A stretch of 46,365 nucleotides of DNA from Candidatus Asbonarchaeum danakilense (GTDB lineage Archaea > Nanohalarchaeota > Nanosalinia > Nanosalinales > Nanoanaerosalinaceae). Of this stretch, positions 24,491-45,965 are shown piece by piece. The notes beneath the pieces are model-generated. The model was not told the origin of the DNA. It searched no databases and saw only the letters and a list, made by a program, of their open reading frames with translations. Position 1 is the first letter of the stretch. Each line of letters opens with the position of its first letter. The translations under genes and the position numbers were made by a program. The stretch covers positions 1-46,365 of the forward strand of contig JAXINV010000013.1 of NCBI GenBank assembly GCA_034190465.1, given 5' to 3'.

Positions 24491-24700
24491 CTACTGGTGT
24501 GCTTCCTGCCCGTGCTTTTTGAGCTGCTGCTTCGAGTCGAAGCATTTCTGGCAGGCAGGACACATCCACATCCGGTTCAGGATCTCGCCCTGTCGGTCGC
24601 AGTCCTCCGTCCGGCAGACCGGCTTGTCGTCCTCGGCCTCGTCCACCGGCAGGAACTTCCGGCAGGACGGACAGATGAAGACCTCCTGTGGTTCAGGCAT
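24491..24700 (-). CDS. Small Zn-finger protein (CxxC, C-x4-C and C2H2)
   Basis: MPEPQEVFICPSC...CRTEDC...CPACQKCFDSKQQLKKHGQEAH; follows the tRNA on the same strand. Confidence 0.75.
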   Translation of the reverse strand: MPEPQEVFICPSCRKFLPVDEAEDDKPVCRTEDCDRQGEILNRMWMCPACQKCFDSKQQLKKHGQEAHQ

Positions 24701-24743
24701 GGCAGAAGGTGCGCCCCGGCGGGATAAAAAAGGTGGGAGAAGA

Positions 24744-25042
24744 TGGGGAGGGAGGGGTTCGAACCCTCGACCTCTGCGTATCTCACCAGCAGGCTCGACC
24801 TGCCGTGGATGGTGGTTGGTTTGTTGGCGTACCGCACGCGTCGCAGCGCACAGCGCCTGACTCAGATCATCGCACAACCCCACTCGCAGTTGGACCACAG
24901 ACAGACCCGAAGGGTCTGCGCCCGTCGAAGGCGGGCCGCGTTGCCAACTGCCGCGGCAGTTGCGCTCAGAGCTCACAACCGAACCAGCTCAGGGCTGTAA
25001 AGGTTATGAGCGCAGCGCTCTATCCACCTGAGCTACCTCCCC
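24744..25042 (-). tRNA. tRNA(CAU), elongator Met or Ile2, with a 225-nt intron at 37/38 (exon 1 25005-25042, intron 24780-25004, exon 2 24744-24779)
   Basis: GGGGAGG/CCTCCCC+A acceptor, GCTC/GAGC D stem, CTGCG/CGCAG anticodon stem with CT-CAT-A|A loop, GAGGG-TTCGAAC-CCCTC T arm. BHB has central helix CUCA/UGAG and bulges UA|A and AU|A. G1-C72 argues against initiator. Confidence 0.92.
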
Positions 25043-25160
25043 ACACGCACAGTGGCGTGGGCGATGGACCGGTTCCAGGGAACCGGTCGGACAGGACCCC
25101 ACCGTTGTACCGCCGGAATCCAGGCATGCAAGGGCCGGCCACATTTTTAAGTCGGTCGGG

Positions 25161-25370
25161 TCAGCCCTCATCGCTGAACGGCATCCGCTGCATCGTCGGC
25201 TCACAGTCCAGCCGGACATCCCCCAGCTCCTCATCGCAGCGGGCGCACCGTTCCGGCGGGTCCTCGCCACCGGTGAAGTACAGCGCGTTGCACGACGGAC
25301 AGAGCCCGCAATCGAAGATCGCCATGTCCCTGACGTGGTGCTTGTGGCCCTCGTTCGTCCCCGTCTCCAT
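25161..25370 (-). CDS. Small CxxC Zn-ribbon protein
   Basis: CPSC...CARC; TAATAAAA-like promoter about 22 nt upstream on the minus strand. Confidence 0.55.
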   Translation of the reverse strand: METGTNEGHKHHVRDMAIFDCGLCPSCNALYFTGGEDPPERCARCDEELGDVRLDCEPTMQRMPFSDEG

Positions 25371-25424
25371 GGGAACGACAGGGCAGCGTGACTTTTATTA
25401 GAGTTCCGCGCCAACTCAGGATCG

Positions 25425-26600
25425 ATGGCCACAGGCAGACGCAACCTGGTACTGGTTCTCATCGCCGTCCTCATAGGATTCCAGATAGGGTTCATCCTGC
25501 AGATGGACAGCCCCTTCCAGCCCGGTCAGAACACGAAGGATAGCCTCACGGACACCGACCAGGTCCGTGGCAACACGACCATCATCGAGCGGACCATCAA
25601 CTTCAACGGGACCACCGCACGGAGCAAGCTCTACAACGCCATCTTCCAGAAGGCACGTGACTCCGTCGTCGCCATAACAACACTCACCCAGCGTGAAAGC
25701 GGGCTCGTCCAGGTCGCGTCCGGATCCGGGTTCATCTACGACGAAAAGGGTCGGATCGTCACCAACAACCACGTCATCTCCAAAGGCTCCCAGTACGAGG
25801 TGCGGCTGCTCAACGGCAACGTCTACGACGCCAAGGTCATCGGCACTGACCCCTACACCGACCTGGCCGTGCTCGACATCGATGCAGAGGGGCTTGACCC
25901 CATCGAACTCGGCAACTCCTCCCAGCTCATGGTCGGCCAGTCCGTCCTCGCCATCGGTAACCCGTTCGGGCTCAGCGGCTCCATGACCGCCGGCATCGTC
26001 TCACAGACCAACCGGCTCCTGCCCGCGACCCAGGGCTTCTCCATCCCCAACGTCATCCAGACCGACGCCGCAATCAACCCCGGCAACTCCGGCGGACCAC
26101 TCCTCAACCTCCAGGCAGAGGTCATCGGCGTCAACACGGCTATTGATACTACCGCAAGCGGCTTCCAGGGCGTCGGATTCGCCATCCCCTCCAACACCGT
26201 CACACGGGTCGTCCCGGAGCTCATCCGCGACGGCAGCTACGAGCATCCGTGGATCGGTGTCGAGGGACGTGACATCACCCCTGCCATCGCCAACGCCATG
26301 GGACTACAGGAAGCACGCGGCTTCCTCGTCATCGACGTCGTCTCCGGCTCGCCCGCGGACAGGGCAGGGCTCCAGGGCGGGAACAACCCCGCCGTCGTCC
26401 GCGGCATGAACGTCACTCTCGGCGGCGACGTCATCGTCGGGATCGGCGGCCAGCCGGTCCGGAAGATCAACGACATCCTCAACTTCCTCGCCAAGGACGC
26501 CGAAGTCGGCGACACCGTCAGCCTAACCGTCATCCGGGACGACCAGCGCAGAGAACTCAGCCTCACCCTGGCCCAGCGGCCTGACACCGGCTCACAGTAG
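25425..26600 (+). CDS. htrA: HtrA/DegP-like trypsin serine protease with PDZ domain
   Basis: GSGF, VTNNHV, DLAV, IGNPFG, IQTDAAINPGNSGGPL, PDZ (GSPADRAGL, GGDVI); N-terminal TM. Confidence 0.95.
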   Translation: MATGRRNLVLVLIAVLIGFQIGFILQMDSPFQPGQNTKDSLTDTDQVRGNTTIIERTINFNGTTARSKLYNAIFQKARDSVVAITTLTQRESGLVQVASGSGFIYDEKGRIVTNNHVISKGSQYEVRLLNGNVYDAKVIGTDPYTDLAVLDIDAEGLDPIELGNSSQLMVGQSVLAIGNPFGLSGSMTAGIVSQTNRLLPATQGFSIPNVIQTDAAINPGNSGGPLLNLQAEVIGVNTAIDTTASGFQGVGFAIPSNTVTRVVPELIRDGSYEHPWIGVEGRDITPAIANAMGLQEARGFLVIDVVSGSPADRAGLQGGNNPAVVRGMNVTLGGDVIVGIGGQPVRKINDILNFLAKDAEVGDTVSLTVIRDDQRRELSLTLAQRPDTGSQ

Positions 26601-29865: not shown

Positions 29866-30297
29866 TCAGCGGGACAGATCCGGCTCCTCATCGGGCTGGT
29901 CCTCCTCGTCCAGCTCCTTGAGACTGAGACTCTTGTCCTCCCCTTGCGTGAAGACCGAAGCCAGGTGGAGGAAGTACTTGCTGTCCTTCACCTCAACGAT
30001 CAACGGCTCGCGTTCAAGCAACTTCTTCAGATCGATCTCGTACACCCCTTCCTCCAGCACACGGATCGACTGGAGATCGAACCTGATCTTTGAATCATGC
30101 GGATCTTTCTCATCATCCTTCACATCTTGCAGGAACTCATCGATCTCCTGCATCACCTCGTCTTCCTCTACCTCTGGCTCATCATCCTCCTGCTCCTTCT
30201 GGTAGAGGAAAAGACTCGAGCCACAGCTACAGCCGTCGACAAGTTCTTCAGCATCGTCCCCGTACTCCTTCCCACAGTTCATACACCTATGTGGCAT
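29866..30297 (-). CDS. oapC: OapC / DUF2072 Zn-ribbon protein
   Basis: MPHRCMNCG...GCSCG..LFLY and SIRVLEEGVYEIDL..L; third gene of the operon. Confidence 0.88.
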   Translation of the reverse strand: MPHRCMNCGKEYGDDAEELVDGCSCGSSLFLYQKEQEDDEPEVEEDEVMQEIDEFLQDVKDDEKDPHDSKIRFDLQSIRVLEEGVYEIDLKKLLEREPLIVEVKDSKYFLHLASVFTQGEDKSLSLKELDEEDQPDEEPDLSR

Positions 30298-30299
30298 GC

Positions 30300-30683
30300 C
30301 TAGTCACCTTCCTCCGCCGCCTTAGCCAGCAGCGACACCGATTCGCGGCTCTCCTTGATCTTCTCCATGACCTCCGAATTGCCGACGATCGTCAGCCCCT
30401 TGCGGCGTTCCTTCCCCAACAGGTTGAACACGTTGTTCAAGACGCGATCGTAGAAATCCCCGTGACCTTCCAGTCCCGAGAACTCGATGCCCGGGAAGTC
30501 ATCACTCACCGCTTCCATCGACGACTCCATCAGACGGCGCTTCTCATCCGGGCTGAGCGCCTCCTCAAGCACCAGGATCTTGCCGTCCCGGACCTCGTCC
30601 AGGATCATCTCCAGCTTATCCGCAAAATCCTGGTCCTCCAGTTTCTGGCGACTGATAAACTCGATCGGTATCCCGTCAGACAT
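30300..30683 (-). CDS. oapB: OapB / DUF2073 protein
   Basis: EFIS...EKL.MILD.VRDG.I.VLEE-L-PDE...L....M....DDFPGIE...LTIVG. Confidence 0.88.
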   Translation of the reverse strand: MSDGIPIEFISRQKLEDQDFADKLEMILDEVRDGKILVLEEALSPDEKRRLMESSMEAVSDDFPGIEFSGLEGHGDFYDRVLNNVFNLLGKERRKGLTIVGNSEVMEKIKESRESVSLLAKAAEEGD

Positions 30684-30684
30684 C

Positions 30685-31305
30685 TTAGCTCAGATGGTTG
30701 ATGATTTCACTGTACAGTTTATCGATGTTCGTCCCCTCCTTCGCAGAGACCTCGACCACCGGGTGCTGCGGGAATGCGTCCCTGACCGCTTCCGGATCCG
30801 CGTCCTCCAGGTCCACCTTGTTCGCCACGATCAGGATCGGTATCTTCTTCGCCTCCAGGTTGCCGATCACCGTCACATTGACCTGAGTGTAGGGGTCCTC
30901 GGTCGCATCGAACACCACCAGGCAGGCATCCACATCATCCAGCCACTTGATGGCCTCAACGATGCCCTTCGTCGCCTCCTTGGCGCGCGACTTCGCGGAG
31001 TCCTCCTCAAGCCCGTACTTCTTGAACTCCTTGAAATCGACCTTCGTCGAGATACCCGGCATGTCCAGCAGGTTCATATTGATCGTCTTCCCGTCGGCCT
31101 CCAGCGTGGCCTTCTCCTTCTTCTTGACCTCGCGGGTCTCGTGCGGGACCTCAGAGACATCACTCAGTTCCTCACCGATGAGATCCATCGAGATCTTGTT
31201 GGCCAGCGTCGACTTGCCGGCGTTCGGAGGCCCATAGATACCGAGCGAAATCTCACGGCGCGAACCGAAGAGCCCGCCCAGCAGATCCTTCAGCTTCCCA
31301 ATCAT
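30685..31305 (-). CDS. oapA: OapA Era-like small GTPase
   Basis: GIYGPPNAGKSTLAN, PHETRE, DMPG, RAKEATKG..EAIKWL, DP-TQVN, ANKVD, SAKEG. Confidence 0.9.
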   Translation of the reverse strand: MIGKLKDLLGGLFGSRREISLGIYGPPNAGKSTLANKISMDLIGEELSDVSEVPHETREVKKKEKATLEADGKTINMNLLDMPGISTKVDFKEFKKYGLEEDSAKSRAKEATKGIVEAIKWLDDVDACLVVFDATEDPYTQVNVTVIGNLEAKKIPILIVANKVDLEDADPEAVRDAFPQHPVVEVSAKEGTNIDKLYSEIINHLS

Positions 31306-31819: not shown

Positions 31820-33982
31820 ATGACCCAGACCATGGAAGAGCTCTTAGACGGAGCACCAGACAGGCCAGAGAAGAACGAAACGCTAGATTTCAACGAATAC
31901 CTGAACGAGGTCTACGACGACCCGAAGGTCGAGCGCAACGCCTACCAGCGGCTGGTAGACAGCCTCGAATACTGGGGCGTTGAGGAAGACCCCGAGCACG
32001 GTCGGAACCTCTACAATCTCTTCACAGAAGACCCTATCAACGACGGGCAGGACGTCTTCTACGGAGAGAACATCCACGGACGTGGCGGGGAAGACGGCGA
32101 AGGCATCGACAAGCTCGCCGACCGGCTGTACAACGCAGCAGAGAAGAAAGGGTCCCACAAGCGACTGCTCGTCATGCTCGGCCCTGTCGGTGCAGGAAAG
32201 ACCGACGTCTCCAAGAAACTGGTCGAAGGCTTCGAAGAATACACCCAGACCGAAGAAGGCAGGATGTACACCTGGGAGTGGCAGAACCTCGCAGATCGCG
32301 TCCCCGGTCAGCACCCCGACGACGACAACATCGACGCCCCTATGCAGCAGAGCCCACTGCTCCTGCTGCCCGACGAGAAGCGGGAGGATGTCGTCGAGGA
32401 ACTCAACGAGCGGCTGGACGCCAGCTACACACTCGACCTCGACCAGAACCTCACACCCGAATCAGAATTCTACAGGGACAAGCTCGTCGAACACTACATC
32501 GAAGAAGCTGACGGCGAGATGAACGAGTACGAGGCACTGCAGGAGGTCCTCGACAACCACATCGAGGTCAAACCTCTCGTCGCCGACGAGAACAAGGGAC
32601 AGGCAGTCGCCACTTTCGAACCGAAGAAACCGAAAAACCAGGACGAGAAAGACCTCACAGGAGGAACAGACCTCTCCAGGGTCGGCAACTACGGAGAAGG
32701 CGACCCGCGTGCCTTCGAATACTCCGGCGCGCTCAACAAGGCCAACCGTGGTATCTTCTCCGGTGAGGAGCTGCTCAAGCTCGACACCGAGTTCCTCTAC
32801 AACTTCCTCGAAGCCACAGAGGACTCTACAATCAAGCCAAAGGGCCAGCCCCTCATCGACATGGACGTCGCCCTGCTCGGCCGTACCAACATGGCCGAAT
32901 TCAAGGAAAAGCAGGACACCGAAAAGATGGAAGCGTTCAGCTCCAGGATGAACCGCATCGACTTCCCGTACATCATCGAGTACGGCGATGAATCCAAGAT
33001 CTACGAGAAGTTCGTCCGGAATTCGGACGGCGACATCGCCCTCGAGGACGAGGAGTTCGACCCCGAGGAACACGACGTCAATCTGGAGCCGCACACGCTC
33101 GAGATGGCATCCATGTTCTCCGTTGCCACCCGCATCGAAGATCCGAAGCATGGTGACGAGGTCGAAGACCTGATAGAAAAGGTTCAGGCCTACAACGGCG
33201 ACCTCGACGATGTTGACGTCAAGAAACTGCGGGAAAACGGTAAAGAACAGTCCGAGCACGGCGAAGGCATGAAGGGTATCACCACCCGGTACATCGAGGA
33301 CCAGGTCTTCGCCGCCATGCGTGACAGCGAAAAGCGGGGCGAACAGCATGTCAGCCCGCTCAAGGTGCTCAGCTACCTCGAGAACAACCTTGAGGAGAAC
33401 GCCAGCATCCTCGACTCCGAGCACGACGAACTGAAGGGCCTCGTCGGCAACATCCGTGAAGAGGTCTACAAGGAACGGGCCGTCGAAGACGTCAGACACG
33501 CCATGGCCTACGACGAGAACGAGCTCGAGCAGATGGCTGAGAAGTACCTCAAGCACGCCAACGCCTACGTGCGTGGCAAGGACGAGGTCGAAGGCGGCAG
33601 CAGCTCGCTCACCGACCGGCAGGACGTCGACACCGACTTCCTTGAAGAGGTCGAAGAACAGCTCGACTTCAGGTCGGACAACGCAGAGGACTTCCGCAAC
33701 GAGATTGACAGCTGGATCTCCGGTCGGACACTGGAAGGCGAGGACTTCACCCCGCTCGACAACAACCGGCTCCGTGAAGCGGTGCAGAAGAAACTGTGGG
33801 AGGACAAGAAGGACCACGTCAACTTCCCCGCACTCGTCAACGAGAGCGAATCCCTTGAGGACGACACACGGAACGCAACGCTCTCCTCGCTCCAGGACCT
33901 TGGCTACTCCGAAGACGGAGCGGAAGAGGTCCTCGAGTACGTGGGATCAGAGGTTGCACGGTCCGAGCTGGAGGAGCTCTAA
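31820..33982 (+). CDS. prkA1: PrkA family AAA+ ATPase / serine protein kinase (PrkA1)
   Basis: RNAYQRL, LGPVGAGKT, FEPK.PKNQDE.DLTG, DPRAF-YSG-L-KANRG...EELLKL, PHTLEMA, GEGM-G. Confidence 0.93.
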   Translation: MTQTMEELLDGAPDRPEKNETLDFNEYLNEVYDDPKVERNAYQRLVDSLEYWGVEEDPEHGRNLYNLFTEDPINDGQDVFYGENIHGRGGEDGEGIDKLADRLYNAAEKKGSHKRLLVMLGPVGAGKTDVSKKLVEGFEEYTQTEEGRMYTWEWQNLADRVPGQHPDDDNIDAPMQQSPLLLLPDEKREDVVEELNERLDASYTLDLDQNLTPESEFYRDKLVEHYIEEADGEMNEYEALQEVLDNHIEVKPLVADENKGQAVATFEPKKPKNQDEKDLTGGTDLSRVGNYGEGDPRAFEYSGALNKANRGIFSGEELLKLDTEFLYNFLEATEDSTIKPKGQPLIDMDVALLGRTNMAEFKEKQDTEKMEAFSSRMNRIDFPYIIEYGDESKIYEKFVRNSDGDIALEDEEFDPEEHDVNLEPHTLEMASMFSVATRIEDPKHGDEVEDLIEKVQAYNGDLDDVDVKKLRENGKEQSEHGEGMKGITTRYIEDQVFAAMRDSEKRGEQHVSPLKVLSYLENNLEENASILDSEHDELKGLVGNIREEVYKERAVEDVRHAMAYDENELEQMAEKYLKHANAYVRGKDEVEGGSSSLTDRQDVDTDFLEEVEEQLDFRSDNAEDFRNEIDSWISGRTLEGEDFTPLDNNRLREAVQKKLWEDKKDHVNFPALVNESESLEDDTRNATLSSLQDLGYSEDGAEEVLEYVGSEVARSELEEL

Positions 33983-34041
33983 CTCCTCCCGCTTTTCCCT
34001 TTCCTCTTTTCCACGGTCCAGCACAAGGGGGATGATCAGCA

Positions 34042-36441
34042 ATGCAAGAACCTGAAGCATACGAGGCAGCAGAGAACGAAGCACTCGCAGAGTACAAAGA
34101 ACCGCACAAAGCGATCGGTGAGTACCTCGAAGAGATCGACGAACACCCCTCCAACGCCTCCCAGGCCGCCAAGTACATCCTCGAGGCCATCGAGTACGAG
34201 GGTACACGGACCGTCATCGAGGAAGGAGAAGAGAAGGAACGGTACAAATTCTTCGACGACCCAAACAACGACGGCGAGCACGCCATCCTCGGCAACACAG
34301 AGACACTCAACGACTTCGTCGACGATCTCCGTAACATCGCAGCCGGCCGTGGCAAAGACGAGAAGATCGTCTGGATCGATGGTCCCACCGCCACCGGCAA
34401 ATCCGAGATGAAACGCTGCCTCATCAACGGTCTCAACGAATACTCCAAGACCGACGAGGGCAGCAGATACACCCTCGAATGGAACCTGACAGGGCTCGGT
34501 CAGAGCGACAGCCGTGGTATCGCCTATGGCGACGAAGGAGGAAACATCGACGAAACCGCCTGGTACGAAAGCCCGATCCAGGACGAGCCGTTGAAACTTT
34601 TCAGCGAGGACGGCGGCCGGCAGGCCATCCTGGACGATCTCAACGAACAGACAGATGACAACATCGATATCATGATCGAGGGAGACATGGACCCCTTCAG
34701 CCGGCAGGCGTACGATATCCTCGAGGATCACTACCTCGATCAGCTCGACGAGGACGAGGTCAGTGAGGAACTGTTCTCCCTCATAAGCCACGACAACAAC
34801 GTCCGTGTCAAGCGATACCTCATGGACAAAGGCCAGGGTATCGGCGTGCTCCACGCCGAGGACGACGGACGTCCGCAGCAGAAACTGGTCGGCGACTGGA
34901 TGCGCGGCATGTTCCAAGAACTTGATTCACAGGGAGCAAAGGATCCACGGGCACACAGCTACGACGGCGTCGTCAGTCAGGGCCACCGTGGCGCCACTAT
35001 CATAGAGGACGCGATCCAGCACGCCGACACCGTCAAGAAACTGCTCAACGTCCCCGAAGAAGGATCCGTCAAGTTGGACAAGGCCATCGAGATGAACGTC
35101 GACACCTTGTTCATGATGATCTCCAACCCTGATCTGGCCGCCAACGTCCTGGAGAAGAACCAGCAGGCCGGCGAGAAAGACCCGATGCGGGCGCTCAGGC
35201 GGCGGATGGAGAAACACGAGTTCAAATACCTCACCAACTACAGCCTGGAGAACGACCTCATCCGGCGCGAACTCACCAACGAAACAGGCGTTTGGGAGCG
35301 GAGTGACGACTACGGCGAACTCGAGGACCACATCGAATCCGCACTCCGGCTCAACGTCCGGGACCAGGAGATGGAAGAGCACACCAAAGAATACGCCCCT
35401 CATGCCATCGAAGCAGCCTCCCTGTACAACGTCATCTCCCGGCTTGACGACACACTCGAACTCAGCGACGACGCCGAGGTGGACGAGAGCGAACTCGACC
35501 ACAAGAACTTCGACCTCATCGATAAAGCCCTCCTGTACGACAAAGGAGAGCTCGAGCGGAACGGGGTACGGATCCCCATGGATGACTTCGAGATCGATGA
35601 AGATGCAGAAGAAGGAGAATCCGGGATCCCTGTAACATACACCCGTGACCAGCTTGCAGAGCTGTTGCAACGGGAGAACGAATATTCGCACGAGGAACTC
35701 GATGTCGAGAACGTCATCATGCCTCAACACGTCATCGAAGAGATGAACGAAAGCCTCAAAGACGCTCCTCTCTTCAGCGATGAATCGCAACAAGGTCCCA
35801 GCGAGGTCGAACAGTACGAGGGACTTGCCGATGACGTCGAAGGGTACATCGAATGGAAACAGGAACAGGACGTCATCCAGGCCATCATGGCAGACAAGGA
35901 AACAGACGAGGACACCATCGAGAAATACGTCCGGAACGTCCAGGCAGACCTCGCCGACAGGGACACCGTCGAGATCGACGGCCGGGAGCTCAGCGTCGAC
36001 CACGCTTTCCTCAAGAGCTTCGAGACCAAAACACTCGGCATGTTCGACACCGACGACTACAAGCGCGACAACCAGCCGAGCGACGACGTCGAAGAATTCC
36101 GGAAACAGAAGATCGACAGCTGGATCTCCAACCAGGCCCTGCAACAGGGCGGCAGCGAATACAGCGTCGACCTGGACGAACTCGACCTCCGGGAAATCCC
36201 CGTCATCGACAGCCTGCTCGGCTCCTTCACCTGGGACGATGTCACCAGGTTCTACGAGAACCTGGATCCCGGGGACTGGAACGAGCCCAAGCTCGACACC
36301 GAGACCGAGGAGGTCAAAGAACGGGCGATCGACGAAATGGTCGACATGGGATACAGCGAGGCCTCAGCCGAGGTCACCTCCCGCATGGTCATGGACAGGG
36401 TCAGTGACGAACACAGCAGTCTTTTCGAGGGTGAAGCATAA
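34042..36441 (+). CDS. prkA2: PrkA family AAA+ protein (PrkA2, haloarchaeal kinase-anchor type)
   Basis: FFDDP-NDGEHAILGNT, GPTATGKSEMKRCL-NGL, SYDGV-SQG, LLNVP-E, ISNPDL, APHA-EAA. Confidence 0.9.
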   Translation: MQEPEAYEAAENEALAEYKEPHKAIGEYLEEIDEHPSNASQAAKYILEAIEYEGTRTVIEEGEEKERYKFFDDPNNDGEHAILGNTETLNDFVDDLRNIAAGRGKDEKIVWIDGPTATGKSEMKRCLINGLNEYSKTDEGSRYTLEWNLTGLGQSDSRGIAYGDEGGNIDETAWYESPIQDEPLKLFSEDGGRQAILDDLNEQTDDNIDIMIEGDMDPFSRQAYDILEDHYLDQLDEDEVSEELFSLISHDNNVRVKRYLMDKGQGIGVLHAEDDGRPQQKLVGDWMRGMFQELDSQGAKDPRAHSYDGVVSQGHRGATIIEDAIQHADTVKKLLNVPEEGSVKLDKAIEMNVDTLFMMISNPDLAANVLEKNQQAGEKDPMRALRRRMEKHEFKYLTNYSLENDLIRRELTNETGVWERSDDYGELEDHIESALRLNVRDQEMEEHTKEYAPHAIEAASLYNVISRLDDTLELSDDAEVDESELDHKNFDLIDKALLYDKGELERNGVRIPMDDFEIDEDAEEGESGIPVTYTRDQLAELLQRENEYSHEELDVENVIMPQHVIEEMNESLKDAPLFSDESQQGPSEVEQYEGLADDVEGYIEWKQEQDVIQAIMADKETDEDTIEKYVRNVQADLADRDTVEIDGRELSVDHAFLKSFETKTLGMFDTDDYKRDNQPSDDVEEFRKQKIDSWISNQALQQGGSEYSVDLDELDLREIPVIDSLLGSFTWDDVTRFYENLDPGDWNEPKLDTETEEVKERAIDEMVDMGYSEASAEVTSRMVMDRVSDEHSSLFEGEA

Positions 36442-37811
36442 TGAGGAGTGACAGAATCCGACGCGATCGGGACAGATTCATGGAAATCGGTGAAGAAGAA
36501 CGTGAGGACCTGGCAGACTGGATCCAGTACGGGGACATGAGCGACATGATTCCTGAGGACGACTACGCCAGCGTCCCCATCAAGGTCGCCGAGCTGCCCG
36601 AGTTCGCCTACGACCAGTCAGACGAGCCCCGCGTCGGCAAAGGCGGGGGAGAAGGTGAAGGCGGCCAGCCAGAGCCAGGGGACATCGATCCAAACGCCCA
36701 GCCAGAGGACGGCGAGGGCGACGGGGACGGCGACGAACCTGGCGAGCCCGGCGAAGAAGAGGGCGAGCACGAGCAATATGAGATGGACCCCGAAGAGTTC
36801 GCCGACGAGCTCGACGACGAACTCGACCTGGACCTTGATCCGAAAGGAAAGAAGGTCGAAGAAGAGATCGAAGGCGGCTGGAACCGGATCGAGCAGAAAG
36901 GCACAGACGCCAACATCGACTGGAAGCGGAGCCTGATGGAACAGAAGAAACGCAGCCTCGCCATCGACTACGACGAGAACTTCGCCAGAGAAGCCCTCAA
37001 GGTCGAGGACGTCGGCCCCGAGGACGTGTTCGAGTACATGACCACCCGGTTCCAGGACAACGTTTCCCAGCGAGAGCTCGAGGTCATGCTTGAACAGGAG
37101 CTGGAGGACGAAGACCTCGACGTCTACGACGACTTCGACGAACTTGAGGACGAAGTCGAGCACCGTACCCCCAACCAGCTGCCGCAGACAGAGACCACCA
37201 GCATGCGGGACGACGACAAGCGGTTCCGGAAGCCGGAGATGATCAAAGAAGAGCAGAAGAACGTCGTCGTCACCAACATCAGGGACGTCTCCGGGTCGAT
37301 GCGGGAGGAAAAGCGTGACCTCGTGGAACGCGTCTTCACCACGCTCGACTACTACCTCAAAGGCAAGTACGACAACGCAGAGTTCGTCTACATCGCCCAC
37401 GACTACGAAGCCGAAGAGGTCGAAGCAGTCGAGTTCTTCGGTATGAGCAGCGGCGGCGGCACACGGATCTCCGCCGGCTACGAGGAAGCGAAAAAGATAC
37501 TGGAGGAACGGTACGACTGGGATGAATGGAACAGGTACGTCTTCGCGGCGGGCGACGGAGAAAACACACGCGACGACTTCGAGAACGTCGTCGAACTGAT
37601 GAACGACATGCCCGCCAACCTCCACGCCTACCTCCAGACCCAGCCGAGCGGCGGGGGCTACACGCCACAGGGCGGCTACCACGCCGAGAAGCTGGAGGAT
37701 GCCAAGGAAAACGGTGAACTCGAATACGACACCGCGATCGCACGCGTTGACAGCCAGGACGAAGTGCTGGACGGTGTCGAGACCATCCTCAGTGAAGAGG
37801 ATCAGGGGTGA
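36441..37811 (+). CDS. YeaH/YhbH (DUF444/UPF0229) vWA-domain protein
   Basis: Gly/acidic linker, MIDAS RDVSGSM, F-YIAHD, SGGGTRIS, WNRYVFAAGDGEN. Confidence 0.92.
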   Translation: MRSDRIRRDRDRFMEIGEEEREDLADWIQYGDMSDMIPEDDYASVPIKVAELPEFAYDQSDEPRVGKGGGEGEGGQPEPGDIDPNAQPEDGEGDGDGDEPGEPGEEEGEHEQYEMDPEEFADELDDELDLDLDPKGKKVEEEIEGGWNRIEQKGTDANIDWKRSLMEQKKRSLAIDYDENFAREALKVEDVGPEDVFEYMTTRFQDNVSQRELEVMLEQELEDEDLDVYDDFDELEDEVEHRTPNQLPQTETTSMRDDDKRFRKPEMIKEEQKNVVVTNIRDVSGSMREEKRDLVERVFTTLDYYLKGKYDNAEFVYIAHDYEAEEVEAVEFFGMSSGGGTRISAGYEEAKKILEERYDWDEWNRYVFAAGDGENTRDDFENVVELMNDMPANLHAYLQTQPSGGGYTPQGGYHAEKLEDAKENGELEYDTAIARVDSQDEVLDGVETILSEEDQG

Positions 37812-40273
37812 ATGAAATGATCAAAGAAGATGAGTACCGGCTCCGGGAAGCAGCAGACGAACTCAGGGGTCTCCCTGAGGAAGCAAACGAACTTTCAGAG
37901 AAGCTTGGGCTGGAGCCGTACGACGTCAACTACTGGGTCGTCGACTACGACGACATCAACGAGGTAGCAGCCTACGGCGGCTTCCAGAAGCGGTACCCGC
38001 ACTGGCGGTTCGGCATGAAGTACGACCGCCAGAAGAAGAAATCCGACCACCTCGGTGGCAAAATCCTCGAGATGGTCATCAACGACGACCCCTCAGAGGC
38101 CTACCTGCAAGAATCCAACGACGTCGCAAGTCAGAAAGGCGTCATCACGCACGTCGAAGCACACAGCGACTTCTTCGCGCAGAACGACTGGTATCAGATG
38201 TTCCGGGAAGATCCTGATTCCGCCGCCATGCTGGCACGGCACGCCGACAGGATCGAAGACTACATGAAAGACAAGGATATCGGCGAGGACGGTCAGACAG
38301 CACAGGAAGCAGTCGAAGAATGGATCGACCACGCCCTCACCATCGAAGACAACATCGACCAGCACGTCGGCTACAGGGCCGTCATGGAGCGTGCAAAAGA
38401 GGAAGGCGACTACGACAAAGTTGAGAACATGCGCGAGGCGATCGAAGACCTCGGTCTCAGCGACCAAGTTCAGGAAGAGGTCTTCGACGAGGGCTTCTAC
38501 GAGCACCTCGAAGAGGACGAGGATCATACCGTCCCGTCAGAGCCACAGGAAGACCTCCTCTACTTCCTCATGGAACACGGTAAACAGTACGACGCCGAAG
38601 AAGGTATGGCCCGTGAGATGGAGGACTGGCAGGAAGACGTCCTCAACATCATCCGGAAAGAATCCTACTACTTCGCCCCGCAGAAGATGACCAAGGTCAT
38701 GAACGAGGGCTGGGCATCCTACTGGGACTCCATGATGATGACCAACGAAGGCTTCGCCGACTACGAAGATCTCTTCGACCACGCGGCAGGCGAGGCCGCC
38801 ATGCTCGACGACAGCAACGGCTTCAACCCGTACACCCTCGGCATCGAGATCTGGGAGCACATCGAGAACACAGAGAACCGGGAAGAGGTCGTCCAGAAGC
38901 TGCTGCAAGTTGAAAATGACGAACTCGACCTCACCGACCGGAACATCGATGACTTCTACGACAAGATCGATTTCGACCAAGTCTACGACAACCTGGAGCC
39001 CGGCGAAGCAGAGCGGCAACTGTACCAAGCAAGCTTCGACAACCTCGCAGACATCGAGGAACTCGTCGAAGAAGGCGAACTGGACGAGGACAAAGTTGAC
39101 ATGGACAACCTCGAACGGGCTAAAGAGATCCGGGAGATGCTCGACGACGATGAAACAATCAACAGCCTCGTTGAAGCAACACAGGACTCGCTCAGTGACA
39201 TCGACGATGAAGAGGTCGTCGAGAACGGGAACGTCGTCAACTACGATGCTTCACCGTTCGACTCAGAGTATCTCCAGTCGCTGAAAGACCATCTAGAAGA
39301 AAACGCCGGCGAGGAAATCACTGAGAGCATGGTCATCGATCTCGTCGACGACCTCCGCTATACGGACAGCGAGGCACTGGACGAGGACGATCTCCGGGAA
39401 AAGGTCACCGACGCCATCAAGAACGAGGTCAACGTCGACAGGCATTCGTGGAAGGTCATGACCTACGAGGCACTCGCGGAGAAAAACTTCTCCCTGCTCC
39501 GGTCCGAGAACCGGCGTCACGGCCCTGACAACCCCGGGTACATCGAACAGATCCGCCACGACGAGCTTGAGGAGATCGCCAACTGGAAGGTCGACGAGTG
39601 GGACAAGTACGACAGCATCGAAGAGGCGATGGAGGACGTCGACAAGACACGTGGCTGGGACAAGATGATCGAGGAACGGAAGAACAAAAACGACATCACC
39701 TTCCTCCAGGAGAACATCACACAGGAGTTCGTGGACAACAACGGCTACTACACCTCCGAGACACTGCCGACCAGCGAAGGCAACCCGGACGTCCCCGTTG
39801 TCACCTCCGTCGATGCAGAGGAGGTCCGGGACGCGCTCGTGTTCAAGTTCACGAACTTCGGCAAACCGACCATCCAGGTCGCCGACGCGAACTACGACAA
39901 CGAGGGCGGCCTCCTGCTCGAGCACAACTACAACGGCGTCCAGCTCGACAAGATGCAGGCCCTCGCCACCATGCACCGCCTCCAGAACCTCTGGGGACGG
40001 AAAGTCCATCTCAAGACCATCGAAAAGGAGTGGGACCTTGAGGAGAACGACGAGATCCTCCAGGAACTCGCCATGGCACAGCAGTACGACTACGAGATGG
40101 ACTGGGAGGATCGCATCCCCGAACCCGACGAAGTCGGCAAGCTGATCACCTACGATCCCGACCAGCCACGTCAGCAGATGTTCCAGGAAGAAGAACTGCC
40201 GGACGAAGAGATCGAACACCTCAAAGCCGACGACCAGGACTACAACACCATCCCGGAGGACTGGCTCGCATAG
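37808..40273 (+). CDS. spoVR: SpoVR/YcgB family protein with long acidic insertion
   Basis: AYGGFQKRYPHWRFG, E-VIND-P, HVEAHSDFF, ESYYF-PQ..TKVMNEGWASYW, NPY-LG, TNFGKP-I, LWGR-V-L-T. Confidence 0.93.
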   Translation: MNEMIKEDEYRLREAADELRGLPEEANELSEKLGLEPYDVNYWVVDYDDINEVAAYGGFQKRYPHWRFGMKYDRQKKKSDHLGGKILEMVINDDPSEAYLQESNDVASQKGVITHVEAHSDFFAQNDWYQMFREDPDSAAMLARHADRIEDYMKDKDIGEDGQTAQEAVEEWIDHALTIEDNIDQHVGYRAVMERAKEEGDYDKVENMREAIEDLGLSDQVQEEVFDEGFYEHLEEDEDHTVPSEPQEDLLYFLMEHGKQYDAEEGMAREMEDWQEDVLNIIRKESYYFAPQKMTKVMNEGWASYWDSMMMTNEGFADYEDLFDHAAGEAAMLDDSNGFNPYTLGIEIWEHIENTENREEVVQKLLQVENDELDLTDRNIDDFYDKIDFDQVYDNLEPGEAERQLYQASFDNLADIEELVEEGELDEDKVDMDNLERAKEIREMLDDDETINSLVEATQDSLSDIDDEEVVENGNVVNYDASPFDSEYLQSLKDHLEENAGEEITESMVIDLVDDLRYTDSEALDEDDLREKVTDAIKNEVNVDRHSWKVMTYEALAEKNFSLLRSENRRHGPDNPGYIEQIRHDELEEIANWKVDEWDKYDSIEEAMEDVDKTRGWDKMIEERKNKNDITFLQENITQEFVDNNGYYTSETLPTSEGNPDVPVVTSVDAEEVRDALVFKFTNFGKPTIQVADANYDNEGGLLLEHNYNGVQLDKMQALATMHRLQNLWGRKVHLKTIEKEWDLEENDEILQELAMAQQYDYEMDWEDRIPEPDEVGKLITYDPDQPRQQMFQEEELPDEEIEHLKADDQDYNTIPEDWLA

Positions 40274-43631: not shown

Positions 43632-45965
43632 ATGTATGGCATGCTGCTGGAAACGGAACGACGGCCGCTGAAAATCTCCATCATTCTCAGTATACTGGCC
43701 CTTACGGCAGGAGTTGCAGCGGCGGCACCACACCATCCGCTGTCGCAGATCTATCCGATGGACGTGGACCTGAACCTGTCAGGGCAGGATATCAACGAGA
43801 TCGGCGACCTGGGGCTTGCAGGCGGCAGCACGACCATTGACGGTTCTCTCGATGTCATGGGCCCGATCAACCTTTCAGGCAACGAGATCGTGGACTATGT
43901 GACCGATGCCCGTTCAGGCGCACCGACAAGTCCTAAAGCCGGCCAGATGTGGTTCGACACCGGACAGAGCGTCCTCAAATACTACAACGGCACCAACTGG
44001 ATCGTGACCGCCTCCACGGACCAGGTCAGCAGCGACCTCCAGTCCGTCCTCGGGAGCGGAAACAGCGCCGGCAGCTACAACATCAACATGTCAGGGCAAC
44101 GTCTCATCAATATAGGCTCCGCCAAATCGTCGTTCGGTTCCACCGGCAACCTGCGGATGCCCGTGAATTCTTCAGGCGGCTTCACCGAGGGAACCGCACA
44201 GGTCATCTTCAGCGACACAGCCAGTTCCGAAACCCTGGTGTGGCGGCGCGAAGCCCATGTCAACCGTGCCTTTTCGGTCGACAGGAACGGAAACGATCTC
44301 TTCATGATTGCGGACAGCGGCACCGTTACGATCCCCAACGGAGCACTCAGCATGCAGACGAACGACATCAAGTGGGATAGCGGCACGTTGAACATGCAGA
44401 ACGGCGGATTCGACGCACAAGTAAGTGGCTCCGATGGATTCACGTTCTATGACTCGAACGGCAACCCGGTCTTCGATATCAACAACAACGGCGTGGTCGG
44501 CGTCCCCAAGGGCCGGCTCGATGTCACGGGCGGAAGCATCGATGCGAACGGCAACTACCTACGCTCCGCGTTCATCAATCCTTCCGGCGCCAATGCACAC
44601 GCTAACTTCATCGGACAGCTCGACAACGCCTTCTACCGAGCAGATAGAAAATGGACATGCTCCGGCGACTGCAACAGTGCGATGTTCAACGGCCGGATGA
44701 ACTCCAACGCCAACTGGGGCAACAGCTCCACCCCCATCCAGTTCAGCATCACCTTCAACAGCGCCCAGCATTACTGGTCCGCGTTCCGCATCCACTTCAA
44801 CTGGGGTCGCTGGACGGACACGTTCACTATCGAGCGGCGGGACGACAGCGACACTGATGGCTCATGCAGCGACGAAAGCGGCTGGTCGACGCTCGAAAGC
44901 GTCTCCTCCCACAGCGGCTACGAATACACCACGACCAACACCGGCGGGAGCTGGGCCTGCGGCTTCCGATTCACGTTCCAACGAAAAAACTCCAACCTCA
45001 ACTACAACGGCGACTTCAGGATCGGCGGCGTGATGGCGTACCGGTACTACCGTGGGCACAACGGCATGTACCTCTCACGGAACGGCGACAGCATGTACGG
45101 CGGCCTCAACATGAACCAGAACACGCTCACGAACGTGAAGGACATCGAAGTCAACTCCGGGAACGACCCGATCACCATCGGCCCGAACAGCAACTACGGC
45201 GAAAAGCTCTGGGTTGGCGGCTGGGGGACCAGCACCTCCGAGGCATGGGTCCGGACATCGAACGGCAACCTCCACCTCGACGGGCAGACGAATGACGGCG
45301 TCTACCTCAACCACTACAGCAGCGGGAACATCTACCTCGCGAACGGCGGTGGCTTCGTCGAGAACTACGGATTGCTCGACCAGAACGGGAACGATATCAG
45401 GGGAGCGGGAGATATCTACGACTTCGAAACACTCAACTTCAACAACAACGAGCTCAGCTCATACGACCAGCGGTGCGACGACACAGGTTCCGGGACCTCG
45501 GGCCACGGCCTGTTCTGGTTCGACCGGAGCGACGGCGGTGATCCGACCCTATTCCTCTGCGGCCAGGGATCGACCTGGGAGATCAACAGCGCGTCGGCCA
45601 GCAGCATCGAGTTCAAGGACAACGTCAGCGACTTCAGCCCGGCAGCGGACAAGGTCCTCGACCTCAACCCGGTCTCGTTCAAGTGGAAGAACCGGACACG
45701 GTGGCAGGACCGCCGTGACATCGGCCTGATCGCCGAGCGGGTCGCAAAGAAGCTTCCCAAGCTCGTCACATTCAGGAACGGATCGGCGTTCGGTGTCAGG
45801 TACGACAGGCTCGGCGTCTACCTGCTCGAAGTCGCGAAAAGGCAGCAGCAGACGATCGACAAGCTGCAGCAAGAGAACAAAGAACTGGAGCGGAAAGTCG
45901 ACCGGCTGGAAGCCGCGTTCTGCGAGGAGAACCCGGACAACGACTACTGTGACGATAACAGTTAA
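43632..45965 (+). CDS. Secreted tail-fibre-like protein with C-terminal peptidase S74 (intramolecular chaperone) domain and coiled coil
   Basis: Signal peptide; G/N/S-rich fibre repeats; SSIEFKDNV...LNPVSFKWK...IGLIAE-V...P.LV......VRYDRL..LLE..K, then heptads. Confidence 0.85.
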   Translation: MYGMLLETERRPLKISIILSILALTAGVAAAAPHHPLSQIYPMDVDLNLSGQDINEIGDLGLAGGSTTIDGSLDVMGPINLSGNEIVDYVTDARSGAPTSPKAGQMWFDTGQSVLKYYNGTNWIVTASTDQVSSDLQSVLGSGNSAGSYNINMSGQRLINIGSAKSSFGSTGNLRMPVNSSGGFTEGTAQVIFSDTASSETLVWRREAHVNRAFSVDRNGNDLFMIADSGTVTIPNGALSMQTNDIKWDSGTLNMQNGGFDAQVSGSDGFTFYDSNGNPVFDINNNGVVGVPKGRLDVTGGSIDANGNYLRSAFINPSGANAHANFIGQLDNAFYRADRKWTCSGDCNSAMFNGRMNSNANWGNSSTPIQFSITFNSAQHYWSAFRIHFNWGRWTDTFTIERRDDSDTDGSCSDESGWSTLESVSSHSGYEYTTTNTGGSWACGFRFTFQRKNSNLNYNGDFRIGGVMAYRYYRGHNGMYLSRNGDSMYGGLNMNQNTLTNVKDIEVNSGNDPITIGPNSNYGEKLWVGGWGTSTSEAWVRTSNGNLHLDGQTNDGVYLNHYSSGNIYLANGGGFVENYGLLDQNGNDIRGAGDIYDFETLNFNNNELSSYDQRCDDTGSGTSGHGLFWFDRSDGGDPTLFLCGQGSTWEINSASASSIEFKDNVSDFSPAADKVLDLNPVSFKWKNRTRWQDRRDIGLIAERVAKKLPKLVTFRNGSAFGVRYDRLGVYLLEVAKRQQQTIDKLQQENKELERKVDRLEAAFCEENPDNDYCDDNS

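Follow-up and report, generated by a model that had tools for sequence, protein, structure and literature searches.

The intron of an elongator tRNA-Met gene of Candidatus Asbonarchaeum danakilense probably acts as a box C/D-like guide that is built on a single motif and directs 2'-O-methylation of C34 (Cm34), the wobble base of its own tRNA. The gene lies in a stretch of 46,365 nucleotides, referred to here as the window, and the genome carrying it is labelled G000. In box C/D guidance, L7Ae binds a kink-turn, Nop5-fibrillarin joins, and the base that is paired to the fifth guide position before box D or D' (D+5) receives the 2'-O-methyl group. Such a kink-turn consists of a 3-nt bulge, tandem G.A pairs and a closing stem, which a loop replaces in a K-loop. 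A self-targeting guide in this intron had been proposed in the original prediction for this DNA, and this reading is supported by the conservation of the module in relatives, by covariation between guide and host tRNA, by the C/D protein genes of the genome and by copies in other tRNA introns that are re-aimed at nt 34.

The G000 genome comprises 1.2 Mb with a G+C content of 61% and a completeness of 92%, and Asp and Glu make up 16.5% of its long ORFs in a crude six-frame count. The tRNA-CAU gene (25042-24744) has an intron of 225 nt; it is missed by a default tRNA scan and was found with ARAGORN when long introns were allowed. A low-threshold ARAGORN run produced noise. All features of the gene, its intron and its upstream region are on the minus strand and are given in window coordinates. 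The 5' exon, nt 1-37, is located at 25005..25042 (ARAGORN with long introns), with the anticodon at 25008-25006 and the predicted methylation site, C34, at 25008. The intron, at the canonical 37/38 position, spans 25004-24780 (ARAGORN and a register check), and the 3' exon, nt 38-73, spans 24744..24779 and does not encode CCA (sequence and ARAGORN). The 3' strand of the bulge-helix-bulge (BHB), with the bulge at the 3' splice site, is found at 24780..24787, read from the sequence and enforced as a fold. In this strand, GG forms a 2-bp outer helix and UGAG (24785-24782) pairs with nt 32-35. The intron therefore has the 4-pair helix and the 2-bp outer helix at 37/38 of an archaeal BHB intron, and an EndA domain is encoded in G000. 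The fold of the whole pre-tRNA-Met has a z of -3.74. About 100 nt upstream of the tRNA, a TATA-like hexamer in the sequence (25145..25150) is a putative promoter, and a dispersed hairpin repeat (25090-25067) sits between this hexamer and the gene. Three ORFs that overlap the tRNA, 24491-24976 (-), 24688-25401 (+) and 25004-25495 (-), are without a Pfam match and were regarded as non-coding.

Elsewhere in the window, an OapABC-like trio (GTPase, OapB and OapC; 29866-31305 (-)) is separated by a gap from a group at 31820-40273 (+) with two PrkA-type genes, DUF444 and SpoVR. Going by this gene context, a replication origin may presumably lie near 31.3-31.8 kb. In addition, an ORF of 777 aa (43632-45965 (+)) has a C-terminal Peptidase_S74 (intramolecular chaperone) domain, as in fibre proteins.

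Judged from the tRNA gene set, the host tRNA-CAU is an elongator tRNA-Met, because G000 encodes a separate initiator tRNA-Met and an intron-bearing tRNA-Ile with a UAU anticodon (G000:C11:6754-6936 (-), wrongly labelled Tyr by ARAGORN), because no third CAU tRNA was found in this 92% complete genome, and because the TiaS domain (PF08489) was not found in 40 of the 41 genomes of the order, G000 among them, with a single weak hit in the set. The original prediction had named tiaS and other CAU tRNAs as points to check, and had cautioned that the GGG acceptor start could mean Ile2. With the initiator and the tRNA-Ile(UAU) present and TiaS not found in G000, this caveat has been removed.

The antisense guide, assigned by register and covariation, occupies positions D+2 to D+11 (24971..24980). 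Its target consists of tRNA nt 31-37 and the first 3 intron nt (25002..25011) and overlaps the BHB 5' strand. The two segments form 10 consecutive pairs, of which 9 are Watson-Crick and one is G.U (24976/25006). D+1 is the unpaired U 24970, followed in register by the box D'-like CUGA (24966..24969), and D+5 is G 24974, opposite C34. A 7-bp kink-turn-closing stem with five Watson-Crick and two G.U pairs (5' arm 24959..24965, 3' arm 24872..24878) brings the GAUGA at 24871-24867 next to this CUGA. This GAUGA is part of a C'-like element (24864..24871), which was placed by applying kink-turn geometry to the sequence. It has a 3-nt bulge (24871-24869), a tandem GA (24868-24867) and U 24866, which supplies the U-U of a kink-turn. 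A fourth pair of the C'/D' stem is not formed in G000, because C 24865 faces the opening C of box D'. By sequence, the element is an internal C'/D' kink-turn. The guide with its single G.U, the box, the D+5 register and the stem that juxtaposes the two boxes had all been described in the original prediction, and all were reproduced at the same coordinates.

The tether between target and guide contains a small hairpin (24985..24997; sequence and fold). From nt 37 to D+8 it measures 27 nt in G000 and 2-80 nt across 84 Met introns. The kink-turn stem is capped by a non-conserved multi-hairpin insert (24879..24958), and the D'-to-C' spacer is 94 nt long, compared with 5-15 nt in most minimal introns. 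The G000 intron is thus a common core that is swollen by hairpin inserts and extended by a family-specific 3' domain. A hairpin with a UGNGAY loop (24845-24840) and a variable stem (24833..24852) is found in this domain in all nine Met introns examined of the family, f1. A C/A-rich family-specific element (24818..24827) is a possible anti-guide; its duplex with the 5' end of the guide is weak, at -2.8 to -9.3 kcal/mol in nine f1 introns. A second CUGA (24865-24862) was considered as a terminal D box and rejected, having no guide before it and not being conserved.

When the intron was shuffled with its dinucleotides kept, an in-register match of at least 10 bp before CUGA was obtained in 14 of 100,000 shuffles, a match of at least 10 bp before any A/C/U-UGA in 26 of 100,000, and a match of at least 7 bp before CUGA in 349 of 100,000. 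Rfam searches gave nothing relevant at E<=5 in the locus surroundings, and only tRNA and no sRNA family in eight orthologous loci.

The original prediction had also proposed the conservation of the 10-mer and CUGA in relatives as a check. The host tRNA was matched in 35 of the 41 genomes of the order, and 30 loci were examined; the guide, box D', the stem and the C'-like box are present in 29 of them (L021 was judged by eye). The exception is genome G023 (L016, on G023:C1), where tRNA-Met has an intron of 16 nt without the module. The Lys intron of this genome still carries the module (L214), and two Nop5 matches and no fibrillarin match were found in an assembly that is 72% complete.

A pattern scan of GTDB genomes gave at least 120 matching loci. 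All 120 listed loci were inspected, which ruled out the worry that the pattern merely caught the splice helix. Among the matches listed, 112 are tRNA-like and eight are bacterial without a tRNA; the latter, as chance loci, were removed before covariation was counted. The record titles among the matches listed include Micrarchaeota, Aenigmatarchaeota, Woesearchaeota, Nanoarchaeota (with Nanoarchaeum equitans), Nanohaloarchaea and Hadarchaeota; the taxonomy is that of the titles, some of which (Methanosarcinales, Marsarchaeota and one bacterium) may be mislabelled. Records titled Nanohaloarchaea have exons closely similar to those in the order of G000 and the same intron layout. In a sample of 151 genomes, from the phylum centred on a Woesearchaeota record, 25 pattern matches were obtained, 14 in tRNA and 11 by chance, and the module is therefore patchy outside the order of G000 (14 of the 151 sampled genomes).

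Since tRNA nt 30-31 and the two bases preceding box D' had been left free in the scan pattern, their pairing could be counted. In 75 of the listed loci, box D' reads AUGA (46), CUGA (19) or UUGA (10), and the pair between D+2 and nt 31 is Watson-Crick in 74 of these 75 (A-U 56, G-C 16, U-A 2), against a mean of 45.5 and a maximum of 58 in 10,000 permutations. In the held-out listed loci this pair is present in 37 of 37, giving a total of 111 of the 112 listed, a count of sequences and not of events, which overstates the independent events because the scanned loci include many related Micrarchaeota. A pair between D+1 and nt 30 occurs in just 4 of the 75 and 1 of the 37 listed loci. Among non-tRNA chance matches, the nt-31 pair is found in 9 of 21. 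The 84 distinct Met introns include 40 of at most 50 nt, with the shortest at 34 nt. The original prediction had cautioned that a clear 5' C box is lacking, and this holds in general: a C-like box 5' of the guide, as part of a second, terminal motif, was found in none of the 121 module-bearing introns. The module is therefore a one-motif element and, as the terminal C/D motif of the bipartite layout is absent, differs from a canonical box C/D sRNA, with which it shares an antisense followed by a box D/D' and a target base at D+5.

The proteins that act with such guides were another proposed check, and L7Ae, Nop5 and fibrillarin are all encoded in G000. L7Ae and Nop5 are intact, and Nop5 aligns to a solved archaeal Nop5 over residues 107-350, middle region included. 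Fibrillarin is found in 39 of the 41 genomes of the order. In the 151-genome sample, full-length fibrillarin is present in 14 of the 14 genomes in which a tRNA carries the module, versus 111 of 151 overall (hypergeometric 0.011, with kin that are not independent). One genome of 71% completeness (G027) has the guide and gave no match to fibrillarin or Nop5.

The module is also found in other tRNA introns. In G000, three further introns carry it with D+5 on their own nt 34: Lys(UUU) (G000:C12:23777-24057 (-)), Glu(UUC) (G000:C31:6425-6635 (-)) and Ser(CGA) (G000:C10:16265-16453 (+)). Among distinct tRNA genes gathered from G000 and its relatives, which are a sample and no census, the module is aimed at nt 34 in 16 of 25 Lys(UUU) introns, 8 of 9 Glu(UUC) introns, and one of two introns each of Ser(CGA) and Leu(UAA). 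In the single Leu(CAA) intron it was recognised by eye, with a deviating C' box. Of the loci fetched with a tRNA-Trp pattern, 10 of 20 are tRNA-Trp, and all 10 of their introns have the module, a set without a denominator because the pattern itself required the guide; the free D+2 base pairs with nt 31 in 10 of 10. A tRNA-Trp gene was sought in the G000 assembly and not found. None of the introns of G34 tRNAs that were inspected among the gathered genes has the module. Across these hosts the guide changes with the anticodon, and D+5 stays on nt 34.

In Thr(UGU), seven of eight introns aim D+5 at U39 instead, across the 3' splice junction (one-motif guides of family f1: L231, L291, L293, L295, L303, L304 and L305). 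Its pairing includes the final two bases of the intron, with covariation at intron base -2; therefore, the guide would read the unspliced precursor. Methylation by the tRNA-Trp intron concerns just these two positions, nt 34 and nt 39 (PMC4090602).

Some observations on other introns of this genome can be added. Canonical introns of 31 to ~254 nt are present in 19 tRNA genes of G000, and many of these introns are swollen by nested palindromic hairpins, which also occur beside tRNA genes. Two intron calls, Ser GCU and Tyr GUA, were false and came from the tRNA finder. The tRNA-Pro(CGG) gene is present in two identical copies (G000:C5:47218-47293 and G000:C11:36858-36933). The Thr(CGU) intron (G000:C9:35722-36062 (+)) apparently holds a complete four-box C/D sRNA, as do seven of ten Thr(CGU) introns in all, including L242, L246, L287, L288, L290 and L300. 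The D guide of this sRNA corresponds to the D' guide of N. equitans sRNA10, whose predicted target is 23S rRNA position 2630. We take this position to be the equivalent of E. coli U2552. This 23S site is absent from the G000 assembly. The D' guide, judged by eye, is antisense to the tRNA-Leu(UAA/CAA) anticodon loop and places D+5 on nt 34 in all of these introns but L246. An 11-pair match between the Met guide and Thr(CGU) was ignored, as it has just six Watson-Crick pairs and a doubtful exon border. Of archaeal tRNA genes, ~15% are stated to bear introns in the available part of PMC11408192.

The usual archaeal guide-target duplex comprises about 9-12 bp. The duplex has 10 bp in G000, 7-8 bp in its conserved core and 6 bp for Ser(CGA), and the conserved core is shorter than most guides predicted in the accessible N. 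equitans table (PMC3491384). Beyond nt 37, the pairing favours the precursor at 68 positions, the mature tRNA at 56 and neither at 91, and thus does not discriminate between the two substrates. A second guide for Met C34 was sought in G000 by pattern and none was apparent; three other matches read like coding sequence.

According to the preferred reading, L7Ae would bind the single D'/C' kink-turn and recruit Nop5-fibrillarin. The guide would pair with nt 31-37 and a few further bases, by which the anticodon arm is opened, and fibrillarin would methylate C34, five bases from box D'. The RNA would then probably refold into the bulge-helix-bulge and be spliced. Box C/D methylation fits the constant register, the D+1 that stays unpaired, the re-aiming and the confinement of the module to C34/U34 tRNAs, none of which is needed by the other readings. 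The chief argument against the guide reading comes from biochemistry: engineered complexes with one motif were methylated without site specificity, which depended on two motifs (PMC1635284). Within the guide reading, action in cis, on the hairpin of the precursor, is slightly preferred, and action in trans, on another precursor or by the excised intron, is given almost the same weight; both may occur. The tether is at most 11 nt long in 60 of the 84 Met introns, so that the RNA could already fold back into a hairpin while it is being transcribed; this favours action in cis with later refolding. Intron removal comes late in Methanopyrus (PMC3695527).

The guide and the splice helix use the same nt 32-35, and it is conceivable that the antisense is a folding or splicing switch without methyl transfer, in which L7Ae clamps it over the BHB and thereby delays splicing or shields the anticodon. 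The original prediction had included such masking of the BHB. In G000, the guide-paired fold is predicted to be more stable than the splice-competent fold by 8.1 kcal/mol, and in 79 of 83 Met precursors it is predicted to lie lower than the anticodon-stem fold; these energies leave out tRNA tertiary structure and proteins. The weak possible anti-guide kept in family f1 would also suit a switch, as would the finding that one-motif complexes methylate in vitro without site specificity, the D+5 rule needing two motifs (PMC1635284, in its accessible part). However, a switch requires neither that D+5 meets nt 34 in six additional tRNA types and nt 39 in one more, nor an unpaired D+1, nor the limitation to C34/U34 tRNAs. 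A switch without methylation is thus unlikely and is best regarded as a minor rival or a side effect. For the specificity of a one-motif guide, a pair of introns sharing one Nop5 dimer, or contacts to the body of the tRNA, might be sufficient, both of which are guesses.

It is also rather improbable that the excised intron acts mainly in trans on other tRNAs, possibly paired on one Nop5 dimer, and that its complementarity to its own precursor reflects a shared anticodon-loop sequence. The proposed substrates are the initiator tRNA-Met for the Met guide and tRNA-Arg(UCU) for the Lys guide. The G000 Met guide fits the initiator as well as its own precursor (10 bp), and the Lys guide forms 11 of 11 Watson-Crick pairs with mature tRNA-Arg(UCU) versus 10 and one G.U with its own precursor. 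Two archaea are reported to have Cm34 in their initiator tRNA (PMC7668247). In vitro, the Trp intron is active in trans (PMC4090602 and PMC2584109) and the N. equitans Met intron is a stable RNA (PMC3491384), as stated in the available parts of these papers, and ordinary four-box guides for other RNAs are present in Thr(CGU) introns. Against these points, the covariation tracks nt 31 of the host elongator tRNA, be it A, G or U, and the Thr(UGU) guide requires the intron bases of its own precursor.

A neutral or vestigial origin, in which a piece of the splice helix was duplicated beside a chance kink-turn, is very improbable. Any BHB 3' strand is antisense to nt 32-35, and a duplication would therefore yield a guide seed cheaply; such introns have also taken up many mobile-looking hairpins. 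This does not fit the spacing to an intact kink-turn that is fixed across several phyla, the compensatory change at nt 31, or the retention of the module in introns down to 34-50 nt (40 of 84). That the host is a tRNA-Ile2 and that the pairing concerns agmatidine at C34, as the G run that opens the acceptor stem could indicate, is extremely improbable, given the tRNA-Ile(UAU), the lack of a third CAU tRNA among the genes found, the single weak TiaS match in 41 genomes and an N. equitans counterpart that is an elongator tRNA-Met.

Beyond the single-motif guide for Cm34, a broader reading is put forward tentatively and is less than an even bet: in small-genome archaea, a half-guide within each intron may methylate its own anticodon site-specifically in cis, may have been copied and re-aimed among tRNAs, and may bypass the need for two motifs. 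If true, these introns would be self-contained modification cassettes, for nt 34 in Met, Lys, Glu, Ser, Leu and Trp and for nt 39 in Thr. A guide role would also give a reason for many archaeal tRNA introns to persist.

A close known system in terms of function is the euryarchaeal tRNA-Trp intron (sR50 type), a box C/D guide with predicted sites at 34 and 39, as described in the available parts of PMC7994747, PMC4090602 and PMC2584109. As in the Trp intron, the predicted Met guide lies within the intron of its own target and would use the same three proteins. The sR50 type has C/D and C'/D' motifs and two guides, in a tRNA-Trp host and for nt 34 and 39; the module described here has one motif and one guide, in a tRNA-CAU host. 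Also unlike sR50, its introns are as short as 34 nt, and besides a one-motif Trp version its hosts include Met, Lys, Glu, Ser, Leu and Thr. The same target base, C34, with pairing across the 5' splice junction, is shared with Pyrococcus sR49 and haloarchaeal sR-tMet (PMC2584109 and PMC4033218, in part); these are separate genes and the G000 guide is intronic. In the accessible parts of the reviews, the Trp intron is the sole self-guiding intron named (PMC4090602, PMC11408192, PMC7994747 and PMC4033218), the Cm34 guide of pre-tRNA-Met is called 'always exonic' (PMC2584109), and the Pyrobaculum wobble guides are discussed as free sRNAs (PMC6009581). As a predicted guide, the G000 locus with its relatives contradicts both the restriction to the Trp intron and the 'always exonic' statement, as these are worded there. 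No report of self-targeting Met introns or of copies in other tRNAs was found in a literature that was covered mostly by title, with few subscription papers.

In N. equitans, the intron RNA of the elongator tRNA-Met has been described as stable, abundant and putatively C/D-like (Randau 2012, PMC3491384), and its target is given as 'no prediction' in the published table, as far as the available part of that report goes. This intron (L108, 66 nt) shares its guide, CUGA, short stem and C'-like box with that of G000, and this orphan RNA thereby gains a predicted target. Compared with the accessible part of that report, what is added here comprises the predicted targeting of the tRNA's own C34, the layout with one motif, the occurrence across DPANN and Hadarchaea records and the copies in further tRNA introns. 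In terms of layout, a close system is an engineered 'hemi' box C/D RNA with a target tethered by a tetraloop, for which L7Ae binding, assembly and methylation were observed (Hardin and Batey 2006, PMC1635284, available in part). Its one motif, one guide and short-loop tether are also the layout of the minimal natural introns. The hemi RNA is synthetic and was not site-specific when tested in two pieces, in contrast to the strict D+5 register of the natural introns, which implies that these reach specificity. Those introns that have one kink-turn within 34-50 nt are natural counterparts of the engineered half-guides, and both single-motif specificity and action in cis or trans are therefore directly testable with them.
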